This document shows, piece by piece, positions 4,042 through 62,098 of a stretch of DNA of 64,000 nucleotides. Source of the stretch: an uncultured Smithella sp. (GTDB lineage: Bacteria; Desulfobacterota; Syntrophia; Syntrophales; Smithellaceae). Below the pieces are notes generated by a model, which did not search any database, was not told the DNA's origin, and saw nothing but the letters and a program-made list of their open reading frames with translations. Position numbers and translations under genes: made by a program. Each line of letters begins with the position of its first letter. The first letter of the stretch is position 1. Where the stretch lies: the NCBI GenBank assembly GCA_964646755.1, contig CAZYIE010000006.1:2266-66265 (forward strand). Reading direction: 5' to 3'.

Positions 4042-4042
4042 A

Positions 4043-44152: not shown

Positions 44153-44326
44153 ATTACGCAAGTCGGAAAAGTACCGACTCAGTGCCGGGAAAATAACAGC
44201 TATTGGGATTAGTGAAATTTTATATACAAGCTAAGACAAAGCATATTTTAAATATGCTGGAAGTTCATCGAAGGCAAGTTGGAAATACTTAATTTAAAAG
44301 ACATTCTTTATCTGGAGGATTCTATC

Positions 44327-45520
44327 ATGGGCTTACTTACACGAATAAAAATGAGCATTTTGCTGGCAGGCGGAGAATTGATGAACGTCCCAATACCGGA
44401 GACATTTATCGGAGCAGGATCGCGTTCAAAGATTGGTGATTGGTGTAAGGAGCATGGATATAAACGGGCAATTATTATCATGGATAAAGTTGTAAAAGAG
44501 CTGGGCATAGCGGATAAAATGTTAGATTCCTTAAACAAAGCGGGGGTCATTTATCATATATATGATAATGTTTTGCCTAATCCAACGTTGAGCATGGGTA
44601 AGGAAGCAGCAGCAATCGGTAAAAACAACAATATTGATGTCGTTATCGCTATCGGCGGAGGTTCGCCAATAGATTGCGCTAAACTTACATCAGCTGCAAT
44701 CACAAGCAAAAAACCCATTAATAAATTGCTCGGAATGATGAAGGTCAGGCAAATGCCCTTGCCATTGATTGCAATTCCGACAACAGCAGGAACAGGCTCA
44801 GAAGTTAGCATGGGTGCAGTTATCAGTGATGATGTCACTCACATGAAATCAATCATGGCATCGCCAAAAATTGTTCCCAAATTAGCCGTGCTTGACGGTG
44901 AAACAATGACAGGATTACCAAAACAGTTGACAGCAGGGACAGGCTTTGACGCACTTACGCATGCCGTGGAAGCTTATATAGGTTTTCACTACAACGCAGA
45001 TGCAAAGCGTAACGCTGCGGAAGCCATTGCTGCCATTCTTAAATATCTCAAACGTGCATATGATAACGGCAGTGATCTTGAAGCACGAGACGCACTTGCT
45101 CTTGCATCTTACAAAGCGGGGCTGGCCATGAACAAATGTTCATTGGGATATGCACACGCTTTTGGACATCGGCTTACCGGATTTTACGATCTGCCGCACG
45201 GTATGGCAGTAGGAATGTTCTTGCCGCATGTGATTCAGTATAATAAAAAAGCAGCCGAAAAAGAGCTTGCCGAGCTTTCTGTTGCCTGTGGCCTTGGAAA
45301 AACCACAGATTCGAAAGACAGCCTGGCGGAAAAATTTGAAAAAAGCATTTTTAAATTGTACGACCAACTAAAACTGCCAAAGAAATTCGACAAACTTAAG
45401 AAGTCTGACTATGATCAGATTATTAAAGAAGCATTTAAAGAAGCCAATAGCACTTATGGAGTTCCAAAATATATGACAAGAAAAGAAGCGGTAGCGTTGC
45501 TGGATAAAATATTACCATAA
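44327..45520 (+). CDS. iron-containing alcohol dehydrogenase
   Basis: It has the motif GGGSPIDCAK and the His cluster (HAVEAY, HAFGH, HG). The start is ambiguous between TTG 44279 (track), ATG 44327 (GGAGG 8 nt upstream) and ATG 44381 (GGAG 5 nt upstream). Confidence 0.88.
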   Translation: MGLLTRIKMSILLAGGELMNVPIPETFIGAGSRSKIGDWCKEHGYKRAIIIMDKVVKELGIADKMLDSLNKAGVIYHIYDNVLPNPTLSMGKEAAAIGKNNNIDVVIAIGGGSPIDCAKLTSAAITSKKPINKLLGMMKVRQMPLPLIAIPTTAGTGSEVSMGAVISDDVTHMKSIMASPKIVPKLAVLDGETMTGLPKQLTAGTGFDALTHAVEAYIGFHYNADAKRNAAEAIAAILKYLKRAYDNGSDLEARDALALASYKAGLAMNKCSLGYAHAFGHRLTGFYDLPHGMAVGMFLPHVIQYNKKAAEKELAELSVACGLGKTTDSKDSLAEKFEKSIFKLYDQLKLPKKFDKLKKSDYDQIIKEAFKEANSTYGVPKYMTRKEAVALLDKILP

Positions 45521-45622
45521 AACTTTATATCATTAAGGACAATCCGAAAGTGGCCAGCGTTTAAATTATTGAACGAAGTTATGCAAATGTTGCATTTATT
45601 AAACTAATTCTGGGGGCAACCT

Positions 45623-47578
45623 ATGGCACATGGATACATGGGCAGAATTTTAATGGTAGATCTACAGGAAGGCACCTGCCTGGAGGAAGTAATTCCGGAT
45701 GAGGTGTATGAAAATTATCTGTCTGGAACCGGGCTGGCGGCGCGTATCCTGTTCGACCGGATACCGGCGGGGGCTGATCCTTTAGGTCCCGATAACATTC
45801 TGGGATTTATTTCCGGACTATTGACAGGAACGGGCAGCATGTTTTCAGGTCGGTGGAGCGTTGCCGCTAAATCCCCGCTCACCGGAACCTGGGGGGATGC
45901 CAACTGCGGCGGAACATTTTCGCCCGCTCTTAAGCGTTGCGGCTATGACGGCATTTTTTTCAAGGGTATCAGTCCGAGACCAGTTTATCTTCTGGTGGGA
46001 AACCGCAAGGCGCAGCTTCTGGATGCAACAGAGCTCTGGGGTAAGGACACCATTGAGACAGAAACAATTTTGACCGAGCGCCACAGCAGCCGCAGGCAGG
46101 CAAAAGTTGCGTGCATTGGTCAGGCCGGCGAGAAGATATCTTTGATCTCGGGTGTGTCCAATGATCGGGGAAGAATGGCTGCCCGCTCCGGCCTCGGCGC
46201 CGTAATGGGGTCCAAGCGACTCAAGGCTGTTGTCTGCAACGGCGTACTTCGGATCGGGGCATTTGACCGGGAAGAAATTAGCCGGCATTCCAAGAAATGC
46301 AGCAAGTTTGTTGTCAGCCCCGTTCCATTTATTAACGGTAAGGGCGCGGCCTTGCTGGGCAAGCTCCTTGGTTCGATCCCCGTCGCCATGGCCCAGAATC
46401 CTCTTCTCATGAAGATTATCAGCCGCAAATGGGGAACCTGCGCCATGAACCAATTGTCGCCGCAGATGGGCGATTCTCCCCTTCTGAACTGGAAGGGCAG
46501 CAGCAAGGACTGGACCATCGAACGTTCAAATTCGGTTAATCCCGACCTGATCGTGAGCCGGGAGAAGGTAAAATATCATTGCTACTCCTGTCCCATGGGC
46601 TGCGGCGGGATCTGCACCATGTCGGGGAAATACAGCGAGACTCACAAACCGGAATACGAAACCACCCTGGCTCTGGGTGGACTCTGCCTCAATGAAGATT
46701 CAGAGAGTATATTCTACCTGAATGAACTTCTTAACAGGGCTGGTATGGACACCATTTCCGTCGGCGGCACCGTGGCCTTCGCTATCGAATGTTACGAGCG
46801 TGGCGTCATCACGAAGGAAGACACGGGCGGGCTGGAGCTCACCTGGGGCAACAGTAAAGCTATCATTGCCCTGATCGAGAAGATGATCGCCCGGGAGGGG
46901 ATTGGTGATCTGCTGGCCGACGGGTCGCGAAAAGCTGCGGAACGGATCGGTCATGGTTCCATCGAATGGGCCATTCAGGCCGGCGGCCAGGAACTCCCCA
47001 TGCATGACGGTCGCAACGATCCCCTTTTCAGCGTCCATTACAGTGTTGACCCCACGCCCGGTCGTCATACCACGGGGGCATTCCTCTATTATGAATTCTT
47101 CCAGCTCTGGAAGGAGGCCAAAGATCTGCCCAAAGTACCCTTGATCAGCTCCAAAAACAGACGCTACATTGTCGATGATGAAAAAGCCGCCATGAGTGCG
47201 GCCATGAGTCAGTTCAAGCGTGTCATCGACGGGGCGGGCTTGTGCATGCTCGGCAGTACTCTCGGTATCCGGGCAGTACCTCTCTTCAAATGGCTGAACG
47301 CGGCGACGGGATGGCACAAGACACCGGAAGATTATCTGGAAATCGGGAGGCGTATTCAGACCCTTCAGCAGGCATTCAATGTCAAGCACGGTATAGAGCC
47401 GAAGGGCATGAAGATCAGTGAGCGGGCCATCGGGCGCCCGGCCCTGCTGGATGGTCCGAACCGCGGTCGGACATATGATCTTGAATCTATGATGAGTAAA
47501 TACTGGGAACGGTTTGGCTGGGATTCCCGGACCGGGAAGCCAACTGAGGATACAATGAGGAAATTGGGAATCCGTTAA
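45623..47578 (+). CDS. aor: aldehyde:ferredoxin oxidoreductase family (tungstopterin)
   Basis: 651 aa with the AOR N-domain (GYMGRILMVDL...SPLTGTWGDANCGG) and the cluster motif CYSCPMGC. Confidence 0.9.
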   Translation: MAHGYMGRILMVDLQEGTCLEEVIPDEVYENYLSGTGLAARILFDRIPAGADPLGPDNILGFISGLLTGTGSMFSGRWSVAAKSPLTGTWGDANCGGTFSPALKRCGYDGIFFKGISPRPVYLLVGNRKAQLLDATELWGKDTIETETILTERHSSRRQAKVACIGQAGEKISLISGVSNDRGRMAARSGLGAVMGSKRLKAVVCNGVLRIGAFDREEISRHSKKCSKFVVSPVPFINGKGAALLGKLLGSIPVAMAQNPLLMKIISRKWGTCAMNQLSPQMGDSPLLNWKGSSKDWTIERSNSVNPDLIVSREKVKYHCYSCPMGCGGICTMSGKYSETHKPEYETTLALGGLCLNEDSESIFYLNELLNRAGMDTISVGGTVAFAIECYERGVITKEDTGGLELTWGNSKAIIALIEKMIAREGIGDLLADGSRKAAERIGHGSIEWAIQAGGQELPMHDGRNDPLFSVHYSVDPTPGRHTTGAFLYYEFFQLWKEAKDLPKVPLISSKNRRYIVDDEKAAMSAAMSQFKRVIDGAGLCMLGSTLGIRAVPLFKWLNAATGWHKTPEDYLEIGRRIQTLQQAFNVKHGIEPKGMKISERAIGRPALLDGPNRGRTYDLESMMSKYWERFGWDSRTGKPTEDTMRKLGIR

Positions 47579-47632
47579 TTGCCCACCACACCCGCGTCCC
47601 GGTCATGTACGTCCAGTTGAAGGGAGGAATCG

Positions 47633-48040
47633 ATGTCGTTTATAATCAATGAGTCATGTAAAGGCTGCAATGCCTGTGTAAAGATCTGTCCAACCAAAGC
47701 GATAGCGGGCGAAAAGAAAGAGAGACATGTCATAGATGCCGTCCTTTGTATCGAATGCGGAGCCTGCGGCAGAACTTGCCCCGAAGGAAGTATAGAAAAT
47801 GAGCTCGGTCATGCCTGCCAGATGATCAAGCGTTCAGCCTGGCCGAAGCCGACATTGGACAAGAAGAAATGCTCTTCCTGCGGTATCTGCATCGATGCCT
47901 GTCCGGTTGGCTGCCTGGCACTTACCCAAGCAGGGGAAGATGGTATTCATCCCTATCCATATCTTCGGGACGCAAAAGTCTGCATTGCCTGTGAATTCTG
48001 CATGACCAGCTGTCCCAACGAAGCCATTAGTATGGTCTGA
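47633..48040 (+). CDS. ferredoxin with four [4Fe-4S] binding motifs
   Basis: 135 aa with four CxxCxxCxxxCP motifs. Confidence 0.88.
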   Translation: MSFIINESCKGCNACVKICPTKAIAGEKKERHVIDAVLCIECGACGRTCPEGSIENELGHACQMIKRSAWPKPTLDKKKCSSCGICIDACPVGCLALTQAGEDGIHPYPYLRDAKVCIACEFCMTSCPNEAISMV

Positions 48041-48112: not shown

Positions 48113-48982
48113 ATGACAGACATCAGCGGTAAGAAAGCCATTATAACCGGAGGTGCTATGGGTTATGGTCTTGCCACCTGCAAGGAATTGCTAAAGGCGG
48201 GATGCGACGTAACTATCTGGGACATGGCCGAGAAACAAATGCAGGATGCATTGGAAGAACTGAAAAAAATGAAACTGGGCAAGGTTTATGCCTATAAGTG
48301 CGATGTTTCGGATATAAAGAGAGTCAACGAACTTGTCGAACAGGCCAAAAAGGACATGGGCAGCGTGGATATTATGATCAACAACGCGGCGTATTTGAGA
48401 GTAGCCTATCTGGTCGACATGTCGATAAGTGACATTGTGAAACACACGGAAGTGAATGTTAATGCCCACTACTACACTATAAAGGCGGTTTTGCCCGACA
48501 TGATGGCTCGCAATTCCGGTTGGATAGTAAATATCTCCTCCGCGGCAGCCTTTGTAAGTATGGTGAGAGGAGTGCCCTATACATGCTCTAAATGGGCGGT
48601 GCATGGCATGTCTGATGCGCTGCGGCTCGAGATGAAAGCTCTGGGCAAGAATGGCGTCAAGGTCATGTCCGTACATCCGGGACTGGCTGCTGGCGGAAGC
48701 ATGTTTGCAGGAGCAAAAATGTCCAGGATAACATCCCTGATATTTCCGAAGGTAGAGCAAGCCGTTCTAGGCCAGCGCATTGTCAATGGTATCCGGAAGG
48801 GCAGGACCATGGTCTGCTGCCCGCGGAGCGGTTACCTCTTTTGGATGTCGCGAGGATGGGTGCCTAATTCTGTATATGACAGTCAACAGCAGTTACTGGG
48901 AATGTCCCAGTTCGCCGACACTATTGTGGGAAGGCCGGGCATGGCTCACACCGACGTAAAGGATCCTGGAAAAAAGTCCTAG
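48113..48982 (+). CDS. short-chain dehydrogenase/reductase
   Basis: 289 aa with TGGAMGYG, NNAA and the catalytic YTCSK. Confidence 0.85.
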   Translation: MTDISGKKAIITGGAMGYGLATCKELLKAGCDVTIWDMAEKQMQDALEELKKMKLGKVYAYKCDVSDIKRVNELVEQAKKDMGSVDIMINNAAYLRVAYLVDMSISDIVKHTEVNVNAHYYTIKAVLPDMMARNSGWIVNISSAAAFVSMVRGVPYTCSKWAVHGMSDALRLEMKALGKNGVKVMSVHPGLAAGGSMFAGAKMSRITSLIFPKVEQAVLGQRIVNGIRKGRTMVCCPRSGYLFWMSRGWVPNSVYDSQQQLLGMSQFADTIVGRPGMAHTDVKDPGKKS

Positions 48983-49174: not shown

Positions 49175-51139
49175 CTATGGTGTTACGATAGCGAACGTAG
49201 CCGGCGGTTTTTCGAGCAGAGAGAAAAAGCGTATTAGATCGATCCTGCTGCCGCTTATTTTAAAGTCATCGTTCATCAGCGTGTTTTTGACACCGGCGTT
49301 GCCGGTCATCAGCGCGATGAAGATGTCTTTGGGCATGGTCAGAGTTGCATTGGCATTGTCCTCCGGCTTTGTCTTCTTGTGATGCAACACGGCATTTTCT
49401 ATCCAAAGAACAAAAGATTCACGAGTATCGGAAATTATCAGGTTGATTTTTATATTCTTGTCCTCCGCGTCCGGGCCTTTAAGGCTTGCGGCCATAGCAT
49501 TTAGGAAAGATTCAACCGGCGTTTGCCTGAAAATGTCGGCAGCATAGCTGCTATCCATGCCTTTCTTCGGCGGACCATTGCGTAATTCAGCGGCCGCTGT
49601 AAGATAGCTGTTGCGCCAGGTGGCAGCTTCGGCCATGTAACCCATCTGGTCGTAGGTGCTTGCCAGCAAATCAACCGCCCTCTTATTGCTGGGCTGGGCA
49701 AACACAACTTGGTTCAGCAACTCAGCCGTCCAGCGGTATTCTCCCTTGTCGAAGGCAACCTGAGCCGCCGTTATGGCCTTGTCGGCGCCGATCAGCTCAA
49801 TATAGCGCCTGGCTGACTCCTCGGGCGGCAACGGATTGAGGTTAGCCGGATTGCCATCATAGAAGCCCATATAGAATTGATAGACAGCTTTGACATTGTG
49901 GCGCAGATCACCATAGTAGCCGCGGCTGGCCAGATAGTTCGAAAGCGATTGGGGGAATTTTATCATATCGGCAATTTCACGCGGTGTGTAGCCGGCGTTG
50001 ATCAGACGCAATGTCTGGTCATGGGTGTATTTATAGACATCGCGATGCTTGGTGATGAATTCGGCAATGCGTTCCCGGCCCCAGACCGGCCAGTTGTGCT
50101 GGGTGAAAACCACATTAACTTCCGCGGTTTGCTCCAGTGCCTGGTCCAGATAATTTGACCAGGCCAGGGAATTGCGCGCCTTGGCGCCGCGCACCGGAAG
50201 AAGATTGTGCATGGTCTGCTGGATAATTTCCGCACCGCAATAAGCCTTCTTATCGGGAAGCAGAAAGGTCAACTCAGCGGGAGCTTCTGACCCCGGTACG
50301 TTATAGAAGGTAAAACGAACACCGTCAACAATCAGATCTTCCTTTGGTTGTTTGATAATCCGATTCGGCGGAAGAATACCCATGCTGCCCCACGCCATTG
50401 CCTTGCCCAAACCAGTATCAACAAGGCCACTGACGGAGCGTTCAAGATTACTACCAAACTGATAGGCTGACCGGCGTCCAATTGCATTACCGACAAAGAC
50501 ATTTTCACTGATGGCTTCCTCGAGGAATCCATCCGGGGCAATTACGGGAATCTTGCGTTTTGCCACATCCTCAGGTAAAATCACGCCCAGAACACCGCCG
50601 AAGTGGTCTAGATGGCTGTGAGTGAAAATAATTGCCGAGACCGGTTTATCGCCCAGGTGCTTGCGGGCAAAGGCGATTGCAGCTGCCGCAGTTTCGCGAC
50701 AGCTCAACGGATCGACCACGATCCACCCGGCATTCCCCTCAATCAGGTTCATATTAGCGATATCAAAGCCCCGCAACTGGTAGATACCTTCCGTAACTTT
50801 GAACAGCCCGATATTAGCGTTGATAATGGAGTGTCGCCAGAGGCTGGGATTGACCGTTGCCGGGACTTTGCCTTGAACAAAATTGAATTCATCAAAATCG
50901 ATCAGCACATCGCCCTTTGCGCTGATAATTTTCCCGGTCGGTCGGGCAATAAAACCGCGGCGGGCGTCCTCAAAGTCCCGGGGATCATCGAGTTTCAGCG
51001 ACTGCGCGAACTGTTCATTGGCCTTCACAGTAACAGCCGTCGCGTCACCAGGCCTGCTATCGCCGGCGGAAGCATTGCCGTAGCCGGCAATAATTGCCGT
51101 AAATGCCAGAAAAATAGCCATTTTGATTAAATTTTTCAT
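49175..51139 (-). CDS. MBL-fold alkyl/aryl sulfatase (SdsA1/BDS1 type), secreted
   Basis: 654 aa with a signal peptide, the motif THSHLDHFGG, a dimerisation region and an SCP2-like C-terminus. Confidence 0.85.
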   Translation of the reverse strand: MKNLIKMAIFLAFTAIIAGYGNASAGDSRPGDATAVTVKANEQFAQSLKLDDPRDFEDARRGFIARPTGKIISAKGDVLIDFDEFNFVQGKVPATVNPSLWRHSIINANIGLFKVTEGIYQLRGFDIANMNLIEGNAGWIVVDPLSCRETAAAAIAFARKHLGDKPVSAIIFTHSHLDHFGGVLGVILPEDVAKRKIPVIAPDGFLEEAISENVFVGNAIGRRSAYQFGSNLERSVSGLVDTGLGKAMAWGSMGILPPNRIIKQPKEDLIVDGVRFTFYNVPGSEAPAELTFLLPDKKAYCGAEIIQQTMHNLLPVRGAKARNSLAWSNYLDQALEQTAEVNVVFTQHNWPVWGRERIAEFITKHRDVYKYTHDQTLRLINAGYTPREIADMIKFPQSLSNYLASRGYYGDLRHNVKAVYQFYMGFYDGNPANLNPLPPEESARRYIELIGADKAITAAQVAFDKGEYRWTAELLNQVVFAQPSNKRAVDLLASTYDQMGYMAEAATWRNSYLTAAAELRNGPPKKGMDSSYAADIFRQTPVESFLNAMAASLKGPDAEDKNIKINLIISDTRESFVLWIENAVLHHKKTKPEDNANATLTMPKDIFIALMTGNAGVKNTLMNDDFKISGSRIDLIRFFSLLEKPPATFAIVTP

Positions 51140-51211: not shown

Positions 51212-51565
51212 TCAGCACTTGGAAGGCGACAAAACGGGGTCCGCATCAGGATCATAAACTACATCACCATTTTTCAGCACGGGATTGATTTTTTCAAACC
51301 ACGCATTGGTCATGCCCGGCACATTCCTTAGCTGAAGAGGATCTTTGAACGGCCCTTTCTTCGTCCGATATTCTACTATCGCTTTGGCCAAGGATTCGGG
51401 CATCTTAAATTCCTCAATACTCGTCAATTGTTTTACCGTGGCCTTATTCAAACTGAGAACCTTCTGCTGCGCCTGGGCAACCACTATCGTCCCCCCCAAA
51501 AAGGCCAATGTAAAAATGAAAATTAATGTAAAATACGCACCCGAGACTTTTTTTCTTGTTTCCAT
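51212..51565 (-). CDS. ComEA-like helix-hairpin-helix protein, exported (copy 2)
   Basis: METRKK..., a hydrophobic N-terminus, then LNKATVKQLTSI...LAKAIVEYRTKKGPFKDPLQLRNVPGM. A GGGAGG SD lies before ATG 51565. Confidence 0.7.
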   Translation of the reverse strand: METRKKVSGAYFTLIFIFTLAFLGGTIVVAQAQQKVLSLNKATVKQLTSIEEFKMPESLAKAIVEYRTKKGPFKDPLQLRNVPGMTNAWFEKINPVLKNGDVVYDPDADPVLSPSKC

Positions 51566-53118: not shown

Positions 53119-53172
53119 CAGAAACCTCCACATTTCCTCTCCATCATCACTTGTTAAAACCATCCTTCGTTG

Positions 53173-53616: not shown

Positions 53617-53665
53617 AATCCCATCCTCAGATAACACAATTGGTAATATCGAACATAAACGGACC

Positions 53666-53900: not shown

Positions 53901-55067
53901 CTACTTAAAAAATCCCATCTTTATGAATATAAACAACAGCAACAGACAAAGGCCTATTCTCAGCGACCCCGCCACATACCCGATTACAATACCCTTGGTC
54001 CCTGCTTTTCGCAAATCCGACAGCTTGGTTGACATTCCCAGTCCGACAAAGCAGATGGCAAAGAACCACTCCATAACATTACCCATCGCTTCACTGGCAG
54101 GTACAGGCCAAACCTGCAGGCAGTTCAGTGTCCAGACGAAGGCAAACCCAAAAACGAAAAGGGGAAACTTTTCCTTGAGTACTTCCCAGAAGCTGATCTC
54201 TGTTGACCTTAACTCCTTGCCCAATGTCATGAAATAAATGAACAAGACACCAGCGGGAATCAACACCAATCGCCCGATGTTCGTAAATCCAGAAACCTTT
54301 CCCGCCTCGAAACTGAAATTAAAGCCGGTGGCGATCACCTGATTAGAATTGGGAACCCCGGCCGCAGCGAGCAGGCCGAATGCATCATTTGACATACCCA
54401 GAAGCTTCCCCACAAATGGAAGTGCAAACAGGCAAAAAAGGCCGAACGTGACCGAAACCGCTATCGCATAGGCCACCTCTTCGCTTTTGGCCTTCACCAT
54501 CGGGGCAATGGCGATGCATGCCGACACGCCGCACATCGAAAAGGCCGCAGCGAGGAGACCCGTCATGGCGTCACCCATCTTGAAATAACGCCCCATAAAT
54601 GTAAAAATCAGCGCTCCCCCGAAGACCATAAACGCCATGACCACGATGCTGATGGGACCAAGCTTTATAAGGTCTCGCAGCATGTATTGGGAACCGAGCA
54701 TAATGATTCCCACATTCATAAAAACTGCGCTGTAGGTTAATCCTGGTTCCCATGAATTCGGAACACCGATAACGTTGCGGATAAGGATACCCACAATGAG
54801 ACAGGTCACCACGTAATTGAAGTGCAGGAGGTCAACAAAAAAACCCTTGCCGTAGACCGGCGGCAGTACCGCATCTATGTAGCGCAATAGACTGTCCAGT
54901 GTGAATGGAAAGTCTATACCCGGAAGACCGCAGAGCACGGCCAGAACCGTCATGGCCAGAAGTCCGGGCCAACTCTTCTGAAAGCTGGGTAGTGCACTCC
55001 AGACGGAGGGCTTCCTTATCTCCGGCTGTCCACCAGCCGCCTGATCATAAGTTATATCTTGTGCCAT
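53901..55067 (-). CDS. YeiH/UPF0324 (putative sulfate exporter, PSE) family transporter
   Basis: 388-aa polytopic membrane protein. Its overall pattern is typical of the Cons_hypoth698 family (from memory). Confidence 0.65.
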   Translation of the reverse strand: MAQDITYDQAAGGQPEIRKPSVWSALPSFQKSWPGLLAMTVLAVLCGLPGIDFPFTLDSLLRYIDAVLPPVYGKGFFVDLLHFNYVVTCLIVGILIRNVIGVPNSWEPGLTYSAVFMNVGIIMLGSQYMLRDLIKLGPISIVVMAFMVFGGALIFTFMGRYFKMGDAMTGLLAAAFSMCGVSACIAIAPMVKAKSEEVAYAIAVSVTFGLFCLFALPFVGKLLGMSNDAFGLLAAAGVPNSNQVIATGFNFSFEAGKVSGFTNIGRLVLIPAGVLFIYFMTLGKELRSTEISFWEVLKEKFPLFVFGFAFVWTLNCLQVWPVPASEAMGNVMEWFFAICFVGLGMSTKLSDLRKAGTKGIVIGYVAGSLRIGLCLLLLFIFIKMGFFK

Positions 55068-55097: not shown

Positions 55098-57974
55098 TTA
55101 CTTCAGTCGCCATACTTCGCGGTAGGCCAATCTTTCCAGCAGTGTCTTCCGCAGAAAATGTTCCGTTGTCCCATTTACCCCGACCATAACGTCCACGTTG
55201 TTTCTGGGCAGTTCCGCCAGGTTCGGACTCTTGCGACCATCTTTATCCTCAATGTGCCAGGCCTGTATCTTCTCACCATCGAAATCATCGATGACGATCT
55301 TGAAATATCCCTCCGGCCCAGTATAAGTCGGATGCTTGGCATCAAGAATAATAGGTTCCGGATTGTCGATAATGAACTCATTGAGCATATAGCAGTGGCC
55401 GCATACGTCAGGACGCATGGTATAACGGTGGTCCTTCGCCCATGGCTTGTCGCGCTCCAGCTTATGCGCGCCCGTCCAGGCATAAAGCGTGACATTGCCT
55501 CCCTTGAAATCGGCGGGCAAATCTAGTTCTACGTGAATATCCTTGTACTGCATCATCACCTTTTGCTGGGAGGGACTGTACTGCGGAAGCGTGTCATAAA
55601 CCGCCTGATTGACAGGTCCCAATGTTTTCTCCATGACAACCTTGCCCTTTGCGTTAAGGAGAACAAGTTTCACCACTTTACTCGCCTGATCGACGCTGAC
55701 AATCCTCAGTTTGTGCTGACCGATAGCAGCTTCTCCTCCGGCCTTCAGAACAAGCTTTTGTGGCTCCTCATAGGAAATAGTAAAAGAATCCATACCGGGA
55801 GTACCCATCTCCGCAATCTCCACAACATCGGGGCTTACCCAGTTGGGAATGGCGTAAGTCGCCCCCTCGGCATATATATCAGGCAGGCTATAGGTCTGAT
55901 TCGCAAAGGAGGATTGGGCATCCCCGTAAATCGGGTTGTAATTGCTGAGTCCGGGGCCCAGAAGCATATCCGCTCCAAAGGCGTTGCCGGAATACTTGAC
56001 AATCCGCGCTTGGGCCACGGGCCGTCCCCAGAGCATGCGCGTTCCCAGGAAGCGAATAGTCTTGGTTCCGTCCCCGAGAGGCACATCCTGCCAGAAAAGC
56101 GGGTTTCCATCACCCATCGGCAGAAGTTTCCAATAATCGATGGCCGTGTTTTTCTTGACGACAAGATAGCTTTCCGTGCTCAGGACATAGGCCTTTTTAC
56201 CGAGAATGTAAATTGATTCACCCACGAGAGGGCGTACATTTCTGCCCAGGCGGGTGGAATAATACAGGCCTGCTGGCGGAATGACGATTTTCCCGTTTCG
56301 GTAGTCCACATAACTGCCGCGGATGACGATGGCATCAGCGCTCGTGAGCTTTTCGCCTTTGCGCGATGTCACGTTTTTGCGTGTAAGCCCCTTGAGCTTG
56401 GGAACAAAAGCGCACGTCGGATCGGGGGCAAACCCCTTGGCGGACTTGATCACGCGCGGATACGACGAAAATGTGGACTTGACCACCGGCACACCGTATG
56501 TGGGATCGGCCAGCCGGGTTAAAAAAGTATCCTCCATCACCGAGACGACAAGTTCACTCATCCCGATAAAAAAATCGATGTTTTCTCTTCCCTCTTTCCA
56601 CAGAATCAGGTTATCCGTCCGACGAAACCAGGAATCTCTGGCATAGCATGTTTTGACAACATCACCTGCAATATCGTCCACAACAACTTTGAAATACCTT
56701 CTGTCCCAGAAATCGGATATACTGATCGGACCATCGTAGGAATTGTTTTCTTTGGTCAGCACAAAGGGACTATTGTTTTCGAGCACGACGCGCTTGAGCA
56801 TGCCGGTCATCTGCTCCGCCTCCAGTCCGACAGTGTAACGGTTGTCCCTCGGCCACGGGTCGCCGTTTTTGAGTTTGACCAAGTCATGATAGATCATCAG
56901 GGAAACCGTGCCGTTTTCCCAGCCAAACGGAGCATCATTGGACCAGGGGACCCAGTCCGATCCCTTAAACATACTTGGATTCACAACCAGTTCGATGTGC
57001 ATGTCCAGGTTGAAATCGGTGAGGGTCATTTTGTCGATATCCGTGACCTTGTATTCCTGCTGAGTCACCGGAAGAAGTAGCTTGGACGCCAGGATTTTTC
57101 TGCCGGTCCAGTTGCGCACCTCAACCAGAATACCGTTCTCCTTCCTGTAAGTATATATCCTCTTGTTCCTCCACCACCGGAAGCTCTCCTGCTGCACGCC
57201 GATTACGTAGGGCCGATCCAGTGAAAAAACGGCCTCCGAAATCACGGGATATGTCACCTCTGAAAAGACCGCATCTTCATGGGTCAACTTCTTGGTTTTC
57301 AGCCTGGTCGCGCCGAAGGTGTAGTTACTGGTGAGGAAGAAGGGCAACTGCTGGGGGTTAACCCCCGCTTTCAGCTTTAAAGCCCTTGCCTTCTCCGGCT
57401 CGGGGAAAGATGATGAAACGGGCATCTCCAACTGCCAACCTCCGGAGGGCGCCATAACGGCAAACTCGCCATAAGGCTTGCCATAGTGGTCAGTCGCGTA
57501 ATCGAACCAGAGACGATAACCCTTCTCATCCAAAAGTGCTTTGTCCCTCTTGTTCAAAGCCACATTTTTTTTCGTCACCTGGGCCGTTTTCAGAGAGAGA
57601 AGGTAAGAGGTCTCACCGAGAATCAGAAAAGGATCGCTTCTTAGCGGCTTGGCATCCATAGATGTGGAGGAAGCATAGAAAAAGCCGCCAGCCGGTACCG
57701 AAACCTTTCCTTCCTGAACGCGGCTACCCCGCAGAACGATACACTCGGCCAGTTCTTTCTCCTGCCCGTAATGGTTCGTCAATTTCTTATTTAAGAGCCC
57801 CGACAGCTGAGGAATGTAGGTAGCGTCGTCGGCCGGAGGAAGACCATGGGGCCTCTCCACCCCAACCGAGTAACCGGGCAACAACAGAACCATATAAAGC
57901 GCGAAGAGGCAAACGAAAAGAGATCCTCTGCGAAGCGGAAACGGTCTTATTCTGCGCAAGAGCGAATTCAGCAT
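55098..57974 (-). CDS. large exported orphan protein with a tandem ~435-aa internal duplication
   Basis: The start is taken at ATG 57974 (MLNSLLRRIRPF...hydrophobic). The halves at aa ~66-505 and ~536-966 (974-aa numbering) align by eye. Examples are YIPQLSGLLNKKLT/FVPKLKGLTRKNVT, PAGGFFYASS/PAGLYYSTR, GDPWPRDNRYT/DKPWAKDHRYT and RYFKVVVDDIAGD/GYFKIVIDDFDGE. I recognise no enzymatic motif. Confidence 0.8.
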   Translation of the reverse strand: MLNSLLRRIRPFPLRRGSLFVCLFALYMVLLLPGYSVGVERPHGLPPADDATYIPQLSGLLNKKLTNHYGQEKELAECIVLRGSRVQEGKVSVPAGGFFYASSTSMDAKPLRSDPFLILGETSYLLSLKTAQVTKKNVALNKRDKALLDEKGYRLWFDYATDHYGKPYGEFAVMAPSGGWQLEMPVSSSFPEPEKARALKLKAGVNPQQLPFFLTSNYTFGATRLKTKKLTHEDAVFSEVTYPVISEAVFSLDRPYVIGVQQESFRWWRNKRIYTYRKENGILVEVRNWTGRKILASKLLLPVTQQEYKVTDIDKMTLTDFNLDMHIELVVNPSMFKGSDWVPWSNDAPFGWENGTVSLMIYHDLVKLKNGDPWPRDNRYTVGLEAEQMTGMLKRVVLENNSPFVLTKENNSYDGPISISDFWDRRYFKVVVDDIAGDVVKTCYARDSWFRRTDNLILWKEGRENIDFFIGMSELVVSVMEDTFLTRLADPTYGVPVVKSTFSSYPRVIKSAKGFAPDPTCAFVPKLKGLTRKNVTSRKGEKLTSADAIVIRGSYVDYRNGKIVIPPAGLYYSTRLGRNVRPLVGESIYILGKKAYVLSTESYLVVKKNTAIDYWKLLPMGDGNPLFWQDVPLGDGTKTIRFLGTRMLWGRPVAQARIVKYSGNAFGADMLLGPGLSNYNPIYGDAQSSFANQTYSLPDIYAEGATYAIPNWVSPDVVEIAEMGTPGMDSFTISYEEPQKLVLKAGGEAAIGQHKLRIVSVDQASKVVKLVLLNAKGKVVMEKTLGPVNQAVYDTLPQYSPSQQKVMMQYKDIHVELDLPADFKGGNVTLYAWTGAHKLERDKPWAKDHRYTMRPDVCGHCYMLNEFIIDNPEPIILDAKHPTYTGPEGYFKIVIDDFDGEKIQAWHIEDKDGRKSPNLAELPRNNVDVMVGVNGTTEHFLRKTLLERLAYREVWRLK

Positions 57975-58309: not shown

Positions 58310-59242
58310 TCACGGCATATACGTCAGGCGATATGCCGCAGCGATAATATGCACCTGGCCCGAGTAGACCAGAACCAAACGCAATAGGAACCCTCCGGCC
58401 AGAGGTGCACCGAGGACCATCAAAACCCGAAAAAGCCCTGTCTCCCCTTTTCTGAAAGCGAGAAACAGGGGAAGCAGCAGACCAACGCCGACAACCCCCA
58501 GCCACAAGGCAAGGCCGCTGAAACCCATGATCAGAGGAATCAGCACTTTCGGCCTCATGACAGGGACAAAAAAGAGGAGAAAAAAGAAGAGTAGCGCCAG
58601 GCCATAGGCCGGCAGAAGGATGCGATAAGATCGCTCCAGCCGCTGGAATGGTCCTGCCATCAGTGCTCGCCGCTTTTGGGGAAAAAAGAGGAGGGCAAGC
58701 AGAAACCCGCCCGCAAACCCCGTATCCAGAGCGGAAAGGCAGAAAAGGACCGGCAGGGCCGAGTTTCGCCAGAGAGGAACGGCGGTGGTAGAAAGCAGCA
58801 CGCCTGTGTAGATGGCCACGAGCAAGGCCAACGGAACGCCCACCCATCCCAGGGCGTCGCAGACCCTCTTCTGCGACCAGATGGGCCACCTGCCGATCAC
58901 GGGAATGCGCTCCCGCGCCGCGGCGGGGAGCCAGCAGAGGGCATAGAACGTGGCGATTAGGAAAAACAAGGTGAGCAGCCAGACCCCTAGGGACATGGGC
59001 GAAAGTCTGTTGAAGACCGTCAAGGTAAACCAGAAGCGGGTCTTATAGCCCAGATCGGCGACCAGCATGGCCAGGCCGAAGGCAAGTGCCGGCGGCACTA
59101 GAAGCGCCGATGCCCGTGAACAGGCCGAAAAGCCTTCGCCCCCCCCTCTGCTCATCAGGACGGCAAAACAAAAGGCACCGGCCGCCACGCCGGCGGAAAA
59201 AAGATACAGGACGACAGGCATGCCCCAGGTGATCTCACTCAT
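58310..59242 (-). CDS. NrfD/PsrC-like integral membrane subunit
   Basis: MSEITWGMPVVLYLFSAGVAAGAF..., with about 8 predicted TM helices. It overlaps the Fe-S subunit stop by 8 nt. Confidence 0.8.
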   Translation of the reverse strand: MSEITWGMPVVLYLFSAGVAAGAFCFAVLMSRGGGEGFSACSRASALLVPPALAFGLAMLVADLGYKTRFWFTLTVFNRLSPMSLGVWLLTLFFLIATFYALCWLPAAARERIPVIGRWPIWSQKRVCDALGWVGVPLALLVAIYTGVLLSTTAVPLWRNSALPVLFCLSALDTGFAGGFLLALLFFPQKRRALMAGPFQRLERSYRILLPAYGLALLFFFLLFFVPVMRPKVLIPLIMGFSGLALWLGVVGVGLLLPLFLAFRKGETGLFRVLMVLGAPLAGGFLLRLVLVYSGQVHIIAAAYRLTYMP

Positions 59243-59897
59243 GCGTTTCCTCCTCACTAACCGCCTTTTTCCACAACCAGGCCAGGACAAAAGCCCCGGG
59301 CACCAAACCTCCCAGCCATTTCCATATCTGCCCGCCCGTCATCGTATTAGGCGGTACCGGGTCCGGCAGCCCGTATTCACCGGGCTGCCCCTGAAGGGCA
59401 TATACCATATGGAGGCGCTCGGCTTTGCCATACGCAATCAGCTCCGCCGGGAGCTTCCCGTTCGGGTAATAACTCAATGCTCCCGAGGGACATTTCGCCA
59501 CGCAGGCTGGTTCCTGGCCGGCATCTGTCCGCTGTGTGCAGAAGTCGCATTTGCGCATTGTGTGCTGTTCCGGACTTACCTGCGGCACATGAAACGGACA
59601 GGACTGGATGCAGTAGCCGCAGCCGATACAAAGATCCCGACGATGCACCACGACTCCGTCCGGTCTCCGGCTGAGAGCCCCTGCAGGGCAGGACGAAACA
59701 CAAGCGGGATCGTTGCAGTGAAAGCACGCCGTTGATATGAAATATTGCTCGCCAGTGGAAGACTTCCCACGGGGATGGCTTACCACGCGCCGCAACCTGA
59801 CACCCGGCGGGGCGTCGTTCTCCATCTGGCAGCCCACCTCGCAGGAGTGGCAGTGGATGCATTTTCTATCCTCGAAGAGGATCAATCGTTCATTCAT
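59235..59897 (-). CDS. 4Fe-4S electron-transfer subunit (DmsB/PsrB-like) with a C-terminal TM helix
   Basis: 220 aa with four Cys clusters (CIHCHSCEVGC, CFHCNDPACVSSCP, CIGCGYCIQSCP, CDFC...CVAKCP) and the hydrophobic tail WKWLGGLVPGAFVLAWLW. Confidence 0.88.
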   Translation of the reverse strand: MNERLILFEDRKCIHCHSCEVGCQMENDAPPGVRLRRVVSHPRGKSSTGEQYFISTACFHCNDPACVSSCPAGALSRRPDGVVVHRRDLCIGCGYCIQSCPFHVPQVSPEQHTMRKCDFCTQRTDAGQEPACVAKCPSGALSYYPNGKLPAELIAYGKAERLHMVYALQGQPGEYGLPDPVPPNTMTGGQIWKWLGGLVPGAFVLAWLWKKAVSEEETHE

Positions 59898-59929
59898 GGC
59901 TATTCACAAACCTTCCTCCCGTTTCGGCA

Positions 59930-62098
59930 TCACGCCTTCGTGAGCCGGCAACCGAAGCCATTGTGCTGCGCGCCGGCCTTGTCCCAGTAGCCTGGGATGA
60001 TCGAATTGACTGATTGACCCGAGTTGGCCGAGACCACTGTTCCCGGATCTGGATAGGAGGGGGTCCAGACAACTCCCGGCAGCACGCCGAAGGTAATCCT
60101 AACCTTGACCGGCATCGAGCCGATCTCTGTCTCCAGCATGGCCGAGTCGCCCTCCGTAAGCCGGAGCTTTTTCGCCGTTTCTGGATGTATCTGCACGAAG
60201 TTCCCATCGGAAAACTGGCCCATGTATCGGGACCAGGTCGTTACGGACTGCTGCCAGTGCTGAACAACCTTGCCCTGCGTAAATATGAACGGGAATTTCT
60301 TCGGGTTTCCTTCTTCCCCAAATGGGCTACCGGAAGGTTCCTCCCAGGCCAGCGGCCCCATCCCGGGGATCTCGAGTTCGATCTTGCCGCTCTTGGTCCA
60401 GAAACGGACACCCTTGAAGAGGGTTCCACGACCGTCCGGACCGTTGGGCGACGGGCAGGGCCAGACAATTCCGGAGGGACTCGCCTTGAGACGTTCCAGA
60501 CTCATCCCGCCCCAGGTGGGTGACATCCCCCGCATCAATTCGTAGATATCCGCCGGGCTTTGGACGGGCGGATAGGCATCGCCGTGGATGAGTTTCCCCA
60601 GATCCGAATAGAATCGCCATTCCGGAACCGTCTCGCCAAGGGGCTCGATTGCCTTATCCCGCCACACAACCTGGCGGTTCAAACCGTACTGGGAACCCTC
60701 GCTCTCGAAGTTCATGGCTCCCGGAATAATCAAATGCGACACTTTGGACTCCTCGTCCATAAAAAAGGCCCGGTGAATAACGAAATCGACCTTCTGCACG
60801 GCCTTGCGTACCCGATTCGCATCCGGATACCTTCGGTAGCTCGCATCGAGCATCAGCACCTTGAGGAATTCCCTCTCCATATTGTTAAGAATTTTGCGGT
60901 AGTGGAGCCCCTTGGGCATGCCGGCCAGCGCGTATTTCTCCTCAAAGGCTTCGCCCCCGCCCGGCTTCCCGCTCTGGAAATGAAGAACCCCTTTACCCGG
61001 ACCCGCGATGTTCCCGGTGATGGCCTGCATCGCTATAATGGCCCGCGAGGTTTGAATCGCATTCGTGTAACGCGAAATCGCCCCAGAGATCCACGCAATG
61101 GTTCGGCTGGATCTCGCCACGACGTCGTAGAGACTTTGGATCTCATCATGCCGCAGTCGGGTGATCTGCGCCACCTTGTCCAGTGTGTATGCTTTGACGG
61201 GTTCGGCAACGAGGTCAAACCCGTTGACGTGTTCCTTCACAAATTTTTTGTCGTACCGGTTTTGTGAAATCAGATCATTCAGAATTCCCATGACCAACGC
61301 GCCGTCCGTACCGGGCCTGGGGCGGAGAATCATATCGCACTGAGAGCCGGTGGGTGTTCTTCGTGGATCGATATAAACGAGTTTCGCACCCTGCTCATGC
61401 GCTTTCTGCAGCCAGCGTATGCTGGTCGGATAGAGCTCGGCGATGTTGGCCCCGAAGAGGAGGATGAGCTCGGCGTTCGGGAGTTCGTCATGGGTGGTTT
61501 CGGCAACCATGGAACCGAGACAGGCATCGAGGGTGACACCCGCATTGATAATGCAGGTGTCACCAGAGTGGCTGAAGTCGGGGTAGCCGGCCAGATGAAA
61601 GGTCATGTTGGCCGCAAGTTCCCCCTCGCGCGATTCCCACAAGGGGGCGAACAATGCCACCCGATGGTGGTAATCATCGGGGAAATCTTTCTTGACCTTC
61701 ATGATCTTTTCGGCCGCTATCTCCACCGCCTTCCGGTAAGGGATCTTCTCCCACGCATTCCCCCTGCGCAACAGGGAATGGAGAAGCCGGTCCGGATGGT
61801 AAGTCAACTCGACCATCGATTGGCCCTTGGGACACATCTTACCGCCGGTCCATTCGCCCTCCGGATTTCCGTATATATTGACCACACGGTTGTCTTTGAC
61901 TTGGACGAGTGTCGTGCAGCGTGCCTGACAAAACTGGCAGCAACTCATCACCTCCCGGTCGATGCGGTTTGGCAGGGAAGGACCAGGTACCGGCTCCCCC
62001 CCTTGCGCTAAGGAGGGCACGGCCAGGGCTCCTGTTGCCAGGGCTCCTGCTTTGAGGAAGGTTCTGCGTGAAATCTCTGTCTTGTGTTTTGTTGTCAT
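59930..62098 (-). CDS. TAT-exported molybdopterin oxidoreductase catalytic subunit (Psr/Phs/Ttr-like)
   Basis: 722 aa with the twin-arginine signal ISRRTFLKAGALATGALA and the N-terminal cluster motif CCQFCQARC...CPKG. GDTC is a candidate Cys Mo ligand. A C-terminal molybdopterin-binding domain is present. Confidence 0.88.
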   Translation of the reverse strand: MTTKHKTEISRRTFLKAGALATGALAVPSLAQGGEPVPGPSLPNRIDREVMSCCQFCQARCTTLVQVKDNRVVNIYGNPEGEWTGGKMCPKGQSMVELTYHPDRLLHSLLRRGNAWEKIPYRKAVEIAAEKIMKVKKDFPDDYHHRVALFAPLWESREGELAANMTFHLAGYPDFSHSGDTCIINAGVTLDACLGSMVAETTHDELPNAELILLFGANIAELYPTSIRWLQKAHEQGAKLVYIDPRRTPTGSQCDMILRPRPGTDGALVMGILNDLISQNRYDKKFVKEHVNGFDLVAEPVKAYTLDKVAQITRLRHDEIQSLYDVVARSSRTIAWISGAISRYTNAIQTSRAIIAMQAITGNIAGPGKGVLHFQSGKPGGGEAFEEKYALAGMPKGLHYRKILNNMEREFLKVLMLDASYRRYPDANRVRKAVQKVDFVIHRAFFMDEESKVSHLIIPGAMNFESEGSQYGLNRQVVWRDKAIEPLGETVPEWRFYSDLGKLIHGDAYPPVQSPADIYELMRGMSPTWGGMSLERLKASPSGIVWPCPSPNGPDGRGTLFKGVRFWTKSGKIELEIPGMGPLAWEEPSGSPFGEEGNPKKFPFIFTQGKVVQHWQQSVTTWSRYMGQFSDGNFVQIHPETAKKLRLTEGDSAMLETEIGSMPVKVRITFGVLPGVVWTPSYPDPGTVVSANSGQSVNSIIPGYWDKAGAQHNGFGCRLTKA

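Follow-up and report, generated by a model that had tools for sequence, protein, structure and literature searches.

We analysed a 64,000-nucleotide stretch of DNA (the window) from an uncultured Smithella sp. (GenBank assembly GCA_964646755.1, contig CAZYIE010000006.1, positions 2,266 to 66,265), in which a first-pass annotation had marked an 18-kb island combining sulfate-ester enzymes, a molybdoenzyme, a giant protein and an alcohol-oxidizing branch. Our tentative reading of this island, drawn from sequence comparison, is that it may be an enlarged version, in one bacterium, of a widespread, undescribed envelope system in which sulfuryl groups from sulfate esters would be handed on by carrier proteins tipped with cysteine. 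The 18-kb block forms one sigma-54 regulon in two layers, a conserved envelope core and a set of lineage-specific additions. The parts that had been left unexplained, namely the giant protein, the helix-hairpin-helix (HhH) proteins and the redox module, turned out to be the conserved core (Table 1). The gene content of this system and its conservation, the alternation of its redox modules, the cysteine motifs at the protein ends and the shared promoters were all observed directly.

Synteny was counted by tblastn and clustering of open reading frames (ORFs) in 80 fetched loci, obtained from the giant gene, which was found in 99 species representatives. All 80 loci contain the giant gene, 74 a YeiH-family transporter, 70 an HhH protein and 59 a protein resembling arylsulfate sulfotransferase (ASST), usually as two paralogs. 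An NtrC-type sigma-54 response regulator was present in 46, a histidine kinase with a periplasmic SBP_bac_3 domain in 28 and a secreted 165-aa protein in 24. The hosts are mostly Desulfobacterota (Syntrophales, Desulfatiglandales, Desulfobacterales, Desulfarculia and Desulfovibrionaceae, including gut Mailhella), and the giant gene was also found in Acidobacteriota and in a few metagenome-assembled genomes (MAGs) labelled Tectomicrobia or Methylomirabilota. Among cultured bacteria the system is carried by Desulfosarcina variabilis Montpellier, Pseudodesulfovibrio karagichevae 9FUS, strain NaphS2 and Mailhella massiliensis, and the related genomes came from fens, peat, groundwater and animal guts. 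Orthologs of the core genes are syntenic rather than scattered, and the co-occurrence of the 958-aa giant protein with its neighbours holds for the ASST-like protein (59/80) and the molybdenum subunit (28/80), but does not extend to the alkylsulfatase or to the arm encoding an alcohol dehydrogenase (ADH) and an aldehyde:ferredoxin oxidoreductase (AOR), each found in 1/80. As a separate observation, one locus from a MAG labelled Anaerovoracaceae (L021) has a layout almost gene-for-gene the same as two Desulfatiglandales loci (L001 and L022), and its placement is probably a binning error or a recent transfer.

The HhH proteins fall into two classes by the last residues before the stop codon. Class 1 has an acidic, proline-rich tail of the form ...DPDAEPxL(S/A)PSKC, and in at least 25 of 35 cases its gene directly follows the ASST-like gene. 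Class 2 adjoins the redox module and ends in ...GGxxC(T/S)C beside the molybdenum enzyme (16/16) and in ...GCNC beside the cytochrome (12/12). In a large protein collection, the SKC end was present in 74 of 75 class-1 homologs and the CxC end in 119 of 120 class-2 homologs, and no other segment of the class-1 protein is as well conserved as its tail. An AlphaFold2 model of the class-1 protein gave a confident, ComEA-like HhH domain with the last ~7 residues unstructured, and the top matches in a fold search were the ComEA-like structures 8dss and 2duy. The HHH_3 domain and the fold thus bear out the earlier description of two ComEA-like proteins, and 'ComEA' is also how carriers of this kind are publicly annotated. 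No competence genes (comEC, pilus or uptake genes) were found in any of the 80 neighbourhoods. To our knowledge, and with ComEA sequences not compared here, ComEA has no comparable C-terminal cysteine tail.

The flexible tails with their invariant terminal cysteines, and the pairing of each with one particular enzyme, are reminiscent of the Sox carrier SoxY, whose swinging arm bears the pathway intermediates on a cysteine (PMC5336275), and led us to propose that the class-1 protein may carry an S-sulfonate. Specifically, we propose from the tail sequences that the class-1 protein is a sulfuryl or sulfur carrier and that the class-2 protein is a dithiol shuttle or a partner of the redox module. 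As in SoxY, a small periplasmic protein bears a conserved cysteine on its flexible C-terminal arm, but the fold is HhH and no Sox genes were found in the 80 neighbourhoods; by analogy the protein may work like SoxY, although it is no member of that family. The likeness extends to the pathway as a whole, since Sox is also a periplasmic multi-enzyme system that holds sulfur-oxyanion intermediates on a cysteine at the end of a small carrier's flexible arm, with a cytochrome or molybdoenzyme partner and a sulfonate-removing hydrolase (PMC5336275). It ends with the carrier itself, HhH in the island and a beta-sandwich in SoxY, with the tails ...SPSKC and ...CxC, and with SoxAX, SoxB and SoxCD, which have no homologs in the island. 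Unlike Sox, the island system is proposed to work reductively and to start from an ASST-like enzyme, and its hosts reduce sulfate or sulfite.

The redox module of the system occurs in two forms. A molybdenum subunit was present in 28 loci and a tetrahaem cytochrome c with a DUF1573 protein likewise in 28, with both in 2 loci and either in 54, and the two look like alternative electron modules. The molybdenum enzyme is anchored by NrfD or, in one clade, by an FdnI-like cytochrome b, and either type of anchor links it to quinones. In the window, the catalytic subunit has a twin-arginine translocation (TAT) signal and the cysteines of the FS0 cluster, and its ligand cysteine aligns with the cysteine or selenocysteine ligand of FdhF. 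Its orthologs conserve PGDxC(I/V)(G/A), and a TAT motif was recognized by pattern in 23 of 27. The catalytic histidine that follows the ligand cysteine in formate dehydrogenase is replaced by isoleucine or valine in all orthologs, and a formate dehydrogenase identity was rejected. The subunit scored 218 bits against the PhsA model (cut-off 694), below the formate dehydrogenase alpha and NasC models, with the ArrA, TtrA and YnfE models lowest and no equivalog cut-off reached; among solved structures it matched 2vpw at 1e-30 and FdhF at 1e-52. The label Psr-like, given in the first-pass annotation, therefore applies to the subunit architecture (TAT-exported molybdenum subunit, four-cluster subunit and NrfD) but not to orthology with PsrA or PhsA. 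The module shares with PhsABC and PsrABC a TAT-exported, cysteine-ligated catalytic subunit, a four-cluster subunit and an NrfD-type quinol anchor, and with Phs the chemistry proposed here, cleavage of S-SO3 to a thiol and sulfite. It departs from both in several ways: FdhF and NasC are at least as close to the catalytic subunit as PhsA or PsrA, one clade has an FdnI-like cytochrome b as its anchor, other clades have a tetrahaem cytochrome in place of the entire module, and a CxC-tailed HhH protein is always alongside.

One further match concerns the cytochrome. UshA and SoxB belong to one hydrolase family, and the tetrahaem cytochrome of the system (e.g. L041, 5691-6155) matches the C-terminal positions 404-519 of NF041198, 'UshA-like (seleno)protein', at E 6e-35; a related cytochrome thus appears to be fused to such a hydrolase elsewhere.

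The giant gene is the signature gene of the system. The N and C halves of its product align with 23% identity (E 1e-34), confirming the internal duplication that had been noticed in the translation. Its description as an orphan did not hold, as at least 217 clusters of full-length homologs with 55-88% identity were recovered and the protein occurs in 99 species. A profile search of 1.84 billion representatives yielded two full-length clusters only (at 50% identity), plus single-repeat relatives. CGHC was present in the second repeat in 116 of 116 full-length homologs. The protein is publicly annotated as 'hypothetical', and it had no credible match in Pfam or NCBIfam, where searching both halves at E 10 gave two chance-level hits only. 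Exact-sequence look-ups of a 974-aa and the 958-aa form returned none, though an identical cluster representative (P0001) exists.

The top Foldseek match of the giant protein was 3u2g, a Methanosarcina S-layer protein with DUF1608 domains (E 6e-6, probability 1.0, TM 0.34). One single-repeat relative (P0232) matched PF07752 at E 0.0015, below the cut-off, and another carries a C-terminal PGF-CTERM signal. We treat an S-layer relationship as a lead and not a finding. The Methanosarcina protein MA0829, whose tandem DUF1608 domains are seen in 3u2g, is likewise a secreted all-beta tandem duplication, but it has no significant sequence match to the giant protein, its repeats are ~260 aa rather than ~450 aa, and the giant protein belongs to a bacterial, diderm host and carries the invariant CGHC. 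Two observations on the shorter relatives are recorded here. Five one-repeat relatives of ~373-402 aa (P0230, P0236, P0245, P0257 and P0265) end in ...DPRF..RPDT (RPET in P0265), immediately ahead of where the giant protein has its CGHC, and other relatives have a different CxxC at that position (CSSC in P0214, CAEC in P0216 and CPWC in P0234).

The ASST-like protein belongs to the propeller family of aryl sulfotransferases (ASTs) independent of 3'-phosphoadenosine 5'-phosphosulfate (PAPS), as judged by its PF05935 and PF14269 domains; its likely start is the MKKSRL codon at 53118. A direct search of the Protein Data Bank (PDB) with the protein gave no match and no alignment to the E. coli enzyme EcAST (3ELQ), and a profile was needed: the family profile matched PDB 9kf4, 'Sulfotransferase', at E 1e-11 with H-x-N, R and H aligned. 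N248 and H329 are invariant, and H144, H145 and R279 are at least 90% conserved, in both paralog groups. Residues of these types make up the active site of EcAST (His252, His356, Asn358, Arg374 and the sulfurylated His436; PMC13426309), and we infer that the conserved positions map onto it. The mature protein has a single cysteine, and no alignment column holds a conserved one; an intramolecular disulfide of the EcAST type was therefore discarded as a feature of this protein. A disulfide has been confirmed for EcAST alone and does not define the family (PMC13426309). With one cysteine in the ASST-like protein, the thiol partners encoded around it are not there to make its disulfide.

AST genes adjoin Dsb genes in several bacteria, as assT-dsbL-dsbI in E. 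coli CFT073 and astA-dsbA in Klebsiella (PMC13426309), and Geobacter metallireducens has an AST-Dsb cluster in which a two-component system is also present. The island resembles these clusters in encoding a periplasmic PAPS-independent AST-family protein with dedicated thiol-redox proteins. Unlike them, it has no DsbA, DsbB, DsbL or DsbI homologs; its thiol partners are the HhH tails and the 958-aa beta-rich protein around an ASST-like protein that lacks the disulfide, and it adds a respiratory-type electron module and YeiH.

YeiH is encoded immediately downstream of the giant gene in 74 of the 80 loci. The protein scored 101 bits (8e-29) against TIGR00698, whose cut-off is 233, and is a divergent member of its family. 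The first-pass annotation had called it a putative sulfate exporter (PSE); the family assignment stands by PF03601, but the genetic links of this family are now to sulfite and not to the export of sulfate. Resistance to sulfite stress in Salmonella depends mainly on yeiH (PMC12880088), and Bordetella pertussis BP2808 behaves as a sulfite exporter (bioRxiv 10.64898/2026.04.22.720190). The island protein shares with both the PF03601 family and this link; it differs in being under a sigma-54 two-component system rather than the LysR-type YeiE, and in enterobacteria the gene is not accompanied by giant, HhH or ASST genes. Homologs of the small membrane ORF that follows (cluster c29) occupy the same place in L001, L021 and L022, and other clades have a different 67-aa membrane ORF (c19) there. 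The resemblance of the next small protein to universal stress proteins (USP), which had been noted at first reading, is slight, with 22.1 bits over the N-terminal half only, short of the PF00582 cut-off of 24.

All conserved parts of the system are located in the periplasm or the membrane, and its control appears to be shared across the island. Two regulatory modules of ~260 bp (A and B), ~80% identical, lie one ahead of each arm; module B falls outside the extent first assigned to the island. Each contains a perfect 36-bp palindrome, GGGTTATATATTGCACCGGGTGTAATATATAACCCC, at 44007-44042 and 62535-62570 (0 expected in shuffled sequence), followed ~115 bp downstream, beyond an AT-rich spacer, by a GG-N10-GC box (44137-44152 and 62425-62440) and then by a short leader that is also conserved. 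The palindrome is presumed to be the site of an enhancer-binding protein, and the same palindrome and sigma-54 box before both arms are direct sequence evidence that one such protein would drive them both. The sigma-54 wiring that had been proposed is therefore stronger than originally stated. No sigma-54 activator was found in the window, either by searching for GAFTGA and Walker motifs or by tblastn with 44 activators, so the regulator must be encoded elsewhere. In the closest relative, a soil MAG with 86-88% nucleotide identity (L003), a sigma-54 response regulator directly follows the island, and such a regulator is adjacent in 46 of the 80 loci. Strict sigma-54 boxes occur upstream of the ASST-like gene, the giant gene or the gene for the 165-aa protein (c9) in at least 8 distant loci. 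The exact palindrome had no match in the 80 related loci and BLAST recovered a diverged copy in L003 only, which indicates that the binding site is lineage-specific. We also considered a riboswitch or molybdenum-cofactor RNA in the long leader of the molybdoenzyme (Psr) arm, but found no Rfam match at the gathering score and only chance-level hits at E<=1; a conserved leader RNA was dropped as well, since in a four-way alignment conservation of the L003 leader stops ~60 nt past the promoter.

The second layer of the regulon comprises Fe-ADH, AOR, the ferredoxin, the short-chain dehydrogenase/reductase (SDR) and the secreted alkylsulfatase of the metallo-beta-lactamase (MBL) fold. These five occur together in one of the 80 loci, L003 (the ferredoxin had an additional weak match in L033), and are lineage-specific additions. 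The alkylsulfatase is a member of the type III SdsA1/Pisa1 family by its sequence: it has a signal peptide, an HSHLDH sequence corresponding to the HxHxDH metal motif, dimerization and SCP2-like C-terminal domains, and full-length matches (residues 9-654) to 2cfu (6.5e-161), 4nur (1.6e-166) and 4av7 (3e-145); its matches to SdsA1, YjcS and Pisa1 span E 1e-143 to 1e-166. Together with the ASST-like protein and its conserved His, Asn and Arg, and with the YeiH-family transporter, it makes the sulfate-ester theme of the first-pass annotation plausible. The Fe-ADH gene opens at a TTG (44279), with an ATG at 44328 preceded by GGAGG, and its product reached no NCBIfam equivalog cut-off.

L003 holds diverged copies of both promoter modules, and window positions 44000-48982 and 49176-62604 correspond to its positions 446-5472 and 5588-18759. 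Relative to the ADH arm, the Psr arm and its promoter module have opposite orientations in the two genomes: the arms are convergent in the window and tandem in L003, the promoter modules are inverted repeats in the one and direct repeats in the other, and the flanking genes differ. That both arms are nevertheless present suggests that the unit moved and stayed together. The proposed route from alcohol through aldehyde to acid (Fe-ADH or SDR, then AOR with ferredoxin) is supported by the shared palindrome and sigma-54 box and by the linkage of the arms in L003 despite rearrangement, but the arm was found in this locus alone among the 80. Pseudomonas degrades sodium dodecyl sulfate (SDS) and other alkyl sulfates with SdsA1 followed by alcohol and aldehyde dehydrogenases. 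This order, a secreted MBL-fold alkylsulfatase and then oxidation of alcohol to aldehyde to acid, is also that of the lineage-specific layer, but the island version is anaerobic (Fe-ADH, tungsten-type AOR and ferredoxin), is controlled by sigma-54 and is joined to a carrier and redox core.

Other lineages have other neighbours. In ~10 Acidobacteriota loci (L011, L027 and L068, 2213-4294, among them), a 693-aa PF01663 protein of the alkaline-phosphatase superfamily with a TAT signal is encoded within the cluster; neither PDB nor NCBIfam gave a closer annotation, and it may be another recruited ester hydrolase. In two Desulfatiglandales genomes, TonB-dependent outer-membrane receptors adjoin the system (L001, 1-1423; L002, 1164-3740), a possible sign that some bulky or scarce substrate is actively taken up.

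The ASST-like protein, YeiH, the recruited alkylsulfatase, the Phs/Psr-like architecture and the sulfur-respiring lineages of the hosts point to sulfur oxyanions, and a periplasmic ligand-type sensor acting through sigma-54 suggests a pathway induced by its substrate. We infer the substrate, the direction of electron flow and each chemical step as follows. An organic sulfate ester in the periplasm would be sensed by the histidine kinase with its solute-binding-protein (SBP) domain and the NtrC-type regulator, encoded elsewhere in this genome. The ASST-like enzyme would transfer the sulfuryl group to the terminal cysteine of the class-1 HhH protein, forming a protein S-sulfonate, which the CGHC site or the CxC carrier would attack to release sulfite, in a reaction like those of thiosulfate reductase or PAPS reductase. 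The dithiols would be re-reduced by electrons from the molybdoenzyme or the cytochrome, and YeiH would carry sulfite across the membrane to the dissimilatory sulfite reductase, bypassing the ATP-dependent activation of sulfate. In this organism, the alkylsulfatase would broaden the range of substrates, and the freed alcohols would be oxidized to acids by Fe-ADH or SDR and by AOR with ferredoxin. In this complete form, a periplasmic 'organosulfate reductase' that moves the sulfuryl group of aryl or alkyl sulfate esters to the terminal cysteine of a ComEA-fold carrier, reduces it to sulfite with electrons from the Mo/W enzyme or cytochrome and imports the sulfite through YeiH, we hold the scheme to be doubtful. 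The proposed chemistry has a known counterpart in CysH (APS/PAPS reductase; APS is adenosine 5'-phosphosulfate) with thioredoxin, where a Cys-S-SO3 intermediate on the enzyme is resolved by a CxxC dithiol to sulfite. The likeness lies in the proposed chemistry only, as CysH is cytoplasmic, uses a nucleotide-activated donor and has unrelated folds.

Several points weigh against the carrier-based reading. The reduction of a thiosulfonate (about -400 mV) is uphill from menaquinol, so an NrfD-type version would need electron flow driven by the proton-motive force, as proposed for Phs. We know of no report of an aryl sulfotransferase passing a sulfuryl group to a thiol acceptor. The YeiH proteins characterized so far seem to be sulfite exporters, and this would also suit an oxidative or detoxifying direction. 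In the loci of gut Mailhella and Desulfovibrio, no redox module adjoins the system. The AlphaFold model of the giant protein is all-beta with a pLDDT of 71.6 and a pTM of 0.66, which is only moderate, and its likeness to the S-layer fold is weak. Finally, the link of the ADH/AOR arm and the sulfatase to the core comes from two closely related genomes.

Against this proposal we weighed the hydrolytic scavenging put forward in the first-pass annotation, in which the sulfatase, with the ASST-like protein acting as an arylsulfatase, would yield sulfate and an alcohol or phenol, YeiH would move the sulfate, and Fe-ADH, SDR and AOR would oxidize the alcohol, leaving the redox module, the HhH proteins and the giant protein as unrelated or accessory. 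An SdsA1-family sulfatase is indeed present, the ASST family was confirmed, YeiH has historically been labelled a putative sulfate exporter and both arms are co-regulated. This account is nonetheless unlikely, for it leaves out the most conserved parts and depends on a sulfatase and an ADH/AOR arm seen in one of 80 loci, and invariant cysteines at the protein ends, the CGHC and redox modules that exclude each other call for both redox and thiol chemistry. A Sox-like oxidative handling of sulfite or thiosulfate can also be imagined, with sulfite exported by YeiH and conjugated oxidatively to the carrier cysteine, electrons passing through the cytochrome or molybdoenzyme to quinone, and the ASST-like or MBL enzyme hydrolysing the sulfonate to sulfate or transferring it to phenols. 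Sulfite resistance and export are the known YeiH phenotypes, Sox is a precedent for carrier-bound intermediates, the joining of a thiol and sulfite to a thiosulfonate releases low-potential electrons, and such a pathway would explain where bacterial ASTs obtain an activated sulfuryl donor. We consider it distinctly improbable, since the hosts mostly reduce sulfate or sulfite and consume sulfite in the cytoplasm, control by the SBP-type periplasmic sensor, and by the GntR/FCD regulator found in some loci, looks more like induction by a substrate than a stress response, the system in this lineage recruited an alkylsulfatase together with an arm for alcohol oxidation, and sulfuryl transfer from a thiosulfonate to a phenol is by our estimate uphill.

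Protein disulfide isomerase has the same CGHC motif as the giant protein. Together with the AST-Dsb clusters of E. coli CFT073, Klebsiella and G. metallireducens and the DUF1608/S-layer fold hint, this raises the idea that the giant and CxC HhH proteins oxidize or isomerize periplasmic proteins, or that the S-layer-like giant protein builds an envelope layer, with electrons passing to quinone through the molybdenum enzyme or cytochrome. A dedicated disulfide-forming system for the ASST-like protein was rejected as the main explanation because that protein has one non-conserved cysteine and no disulfide to form, and a broader role in maturation or envelope structure is very unlikely: the giant protein has no thioredoxin fold, a catalytic molybdenum enzyme would be an odd partner for protein folding, and the pairing with YeiH and the substrate-type regulation would go unexplained. 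Terminal cysteines and CxC tails also resemble metal or metalloid chaperone sites, the molybdenum enzyme belongs to a broad family that contains ArrA, SrrA and Phs, and the tetrahaem cytochrome resembles the C-terminal part of the 'UshA-like (seleno)protein' model, so the tails could in principle chaperone selenium, tellurium or arsenic to or from a Psr/Arr/Srr-like reductase in respiration or detoxification. The conserved neighbourhood has no ars, ter or selenium-handling genes, the ArrA, TtrA and YnfE models scored lowest, and the ASST-like protein, YeiH and sulfatase point to sulfur oxyanions, all of which makes metalloid chemistry highly improbable. That the genes form no functional unit, being chance neighbours or a recent insertion with HhH proteins that are ordinary ComEA DNA receptors, would agree with the public annotation and fold of those proteins and with the different genomic context in L003. 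Given synteny across phyla, duplicated promoters, terminal motifs that co-vary with partner genes and the absence of competence genes nearby, this is scarcely credible.

We found no description of this gene combination in open-access full text, in agreement with the first-pass annotation. The individual families (sulfatase, ASST, YeiH, complex iron-sulfur molybdoenzyme, AOR and Fe-ADH) are known already; what lacks a described counterpart is the system, that is, cysteine-tailed HhH proteins together with enzymes, a tandem-repeat CGHC protein with YeiH, interchangeable electron modules and sigma-54 control. Organic sulfate esters are a large pool of sulfur in peat, soils, sediments and the gut. 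Sulfate esters are recognized as a source of sulfate for these organisms in low-sulfate sediments (PMC6129605). If the carrier-based proposal is true, conversion of esters to sulfite without ATP sulfurylase would change the energetics of sulfidogenesis in low-sulfate habitats, and the system would represent a new respiratory mode with a new class of protein sulfur carriers. It would also explain a 958-aa family from 99 species that has no Pfam or NCBIfam model, mean that hundreds of proteins annotated as 'ComEA' are something else, define a new clade of Mo/W enzymes and bear on the physiological role of the bacterial PAPS-independent sulfotransferases. Even if the mechanism is wrong, cysteine-tailed HhH proteins in strict pairing with enzymes are a clear, testable lead.

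The first-pass layout of 15 genes in two convergent operons between hemL and ackA is borne out by the gene coordinates, and its family calls hold by domain matches, with the exception of the weak USP call. The island spans 44.0-62.6 kb between hemL (42571-43854, +) and ackA (62866 onward, +), the latter divergent from the left-pointing Psr arm. The plus-strand arm runs Fe-ADH, AOR, four-cluster ferredoxin and SDR. The minus-strand arm runs molybdenum subunit, FeS subunit, NrfD anchor, 107-aa HHH_3 protein, 958-aa giant protein, YeiH and membrane ORF, and then USP-like protein, ASST-like protein, second HHH_3 protein and MBL-fold alkylsulfatase. No intrinsic terminators were found between the convergent arms.

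Table 1. Genes and regulatory modules of the island, with positions in the window and the supporting matches or motifs.
Feature	Position	Strand	Evidence and remarks
Regulatory module A	43997..44260	+	palindrome 44007-44042, AT-rich spacer, -24/-12 box TGGTATTCAAATTGCA at 44137-44152, conserved early leader
Fe-dependent alcohol dehydrogenase (Fe-ADH)	44328..45520	+	PF00465 2e-47, PF25137 1e-43
Tungsten-type aldehyde:ferredoxin oxidoreductase (AOR)	45623..47578	+	AFOR_N 3e-70, AFOR_C 8e-98; best solved match 1aor 7e-95
Ferredoxin, four [4Fe-4S] motifs	47633..48040	+	four Fer4 stretches
SDR	48113..48982	+	adh_short 3e-46
Secreted MBL-fold (type III) alkylsulfatase, SdsA1/YjcS/Pisa1 family	49175..51139	-	PF00753 (Lactamase_B), PF14863 1e-55, PF14864 2e-31
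Class-1 secreted HhH protein	51212..51565	-	HHH_3 9e-15; C-terminal tail ...DPDADPVLSPSKC-COOH
Secreted ASST-like six-bladed propeller protein	51676..53163	-	PF05935 1.8e-20, PF14269 3e-9
Small cytoplasmic alpha/beta protein, weakly USP-like	53173..53682	-	Usp E 2.4e-4; 32/80 loci
Small single-helix membrane ORF, 57-64 aa	53666..53860	-	downstream of YeiH; cluster c29
YeiH/UPF0324 membrane transporter	53901..55067	-	PF03601 9.8e-50, residues 79-362
Giant 958-aa secreted all-beta protein, two ~450-aa repeats	55098..57974	-	CGHC at residues 858-861; signature gene of the system
Class-2 secreted HhH protein, 107 aa	57968..58291	-	HHH_3 4e-18; ends ...LEGIGGKDCTC-COOH
NrfD/PsrC-type quinol-interacting membrane subunit	58310..59242	-	NrfD 9e-37
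Four-cluster FeS subunit (PsrB/FdnH type), C-terminal membrane helix	59235..59897	-	Fer4_11 2e-23
TAT-exported Mo/W bis-pyranopterin guanine dinucleotide (bisPGD) catalytic subunit	59930..62098	-	Cys metal ligand (HSGDTCIINAG); TAT_signal, Molybdop_Fe4S4; outside assigned clades
Regulatory module B	62320..62580	-	palindrome 62535-62570, AT-rich spacer, sigma-54 box TGGCATTTAAATTGCA at 62440-62425

The base composition of the island was less extreme than the 55-70% GC first given for most of it: we measured 51.2% overall and 42-60% by gene, compared to 41.8% in the first 26.5 kb of the window, 49.5% in the flanking hemL and 52.1% in ackA. The shift from 42% to 51% is weak evidence for horizontal transfer, and the flanking hemL and ackA are also at ~50%. 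No integrase or transposase was found among the island sequences, and both the flanks and the orientation of the arms differ between the window and L003.

Several features outside the island were recorded. A GC-rich block (54%) at 26599-31922 on the minus strand carries genes for a PilY1-like protein of 1047 aa and for four or five minor pilins of the prepilin type, recognized by FTLIELM-like N-termini, and contains a sigma-54-like box, TGGCATATGATTTGC, at 31871-31885; being a pilus gene cluster, it is unrelated to the island and was rejected as part of it. Three successive ORFs of 400, 257 and 179 aa at 37901-40433 (+) resemble, by reading of their translations, the alpha, beta and gamma subunits of a 2-oxoacid:ferredoxin oxidoreductase. 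A tRNA gene at 11384-11455 (-) was the sole Rfam match at the gathering score in the entire window. Directly upstream of hemL, at 42103-42570, lies a gene for a NirDL/AhbAB-like siroheme decarboxylase, an enzyme of the alternative haem pathway typical of sulfate reducers, which fits the inferred host.

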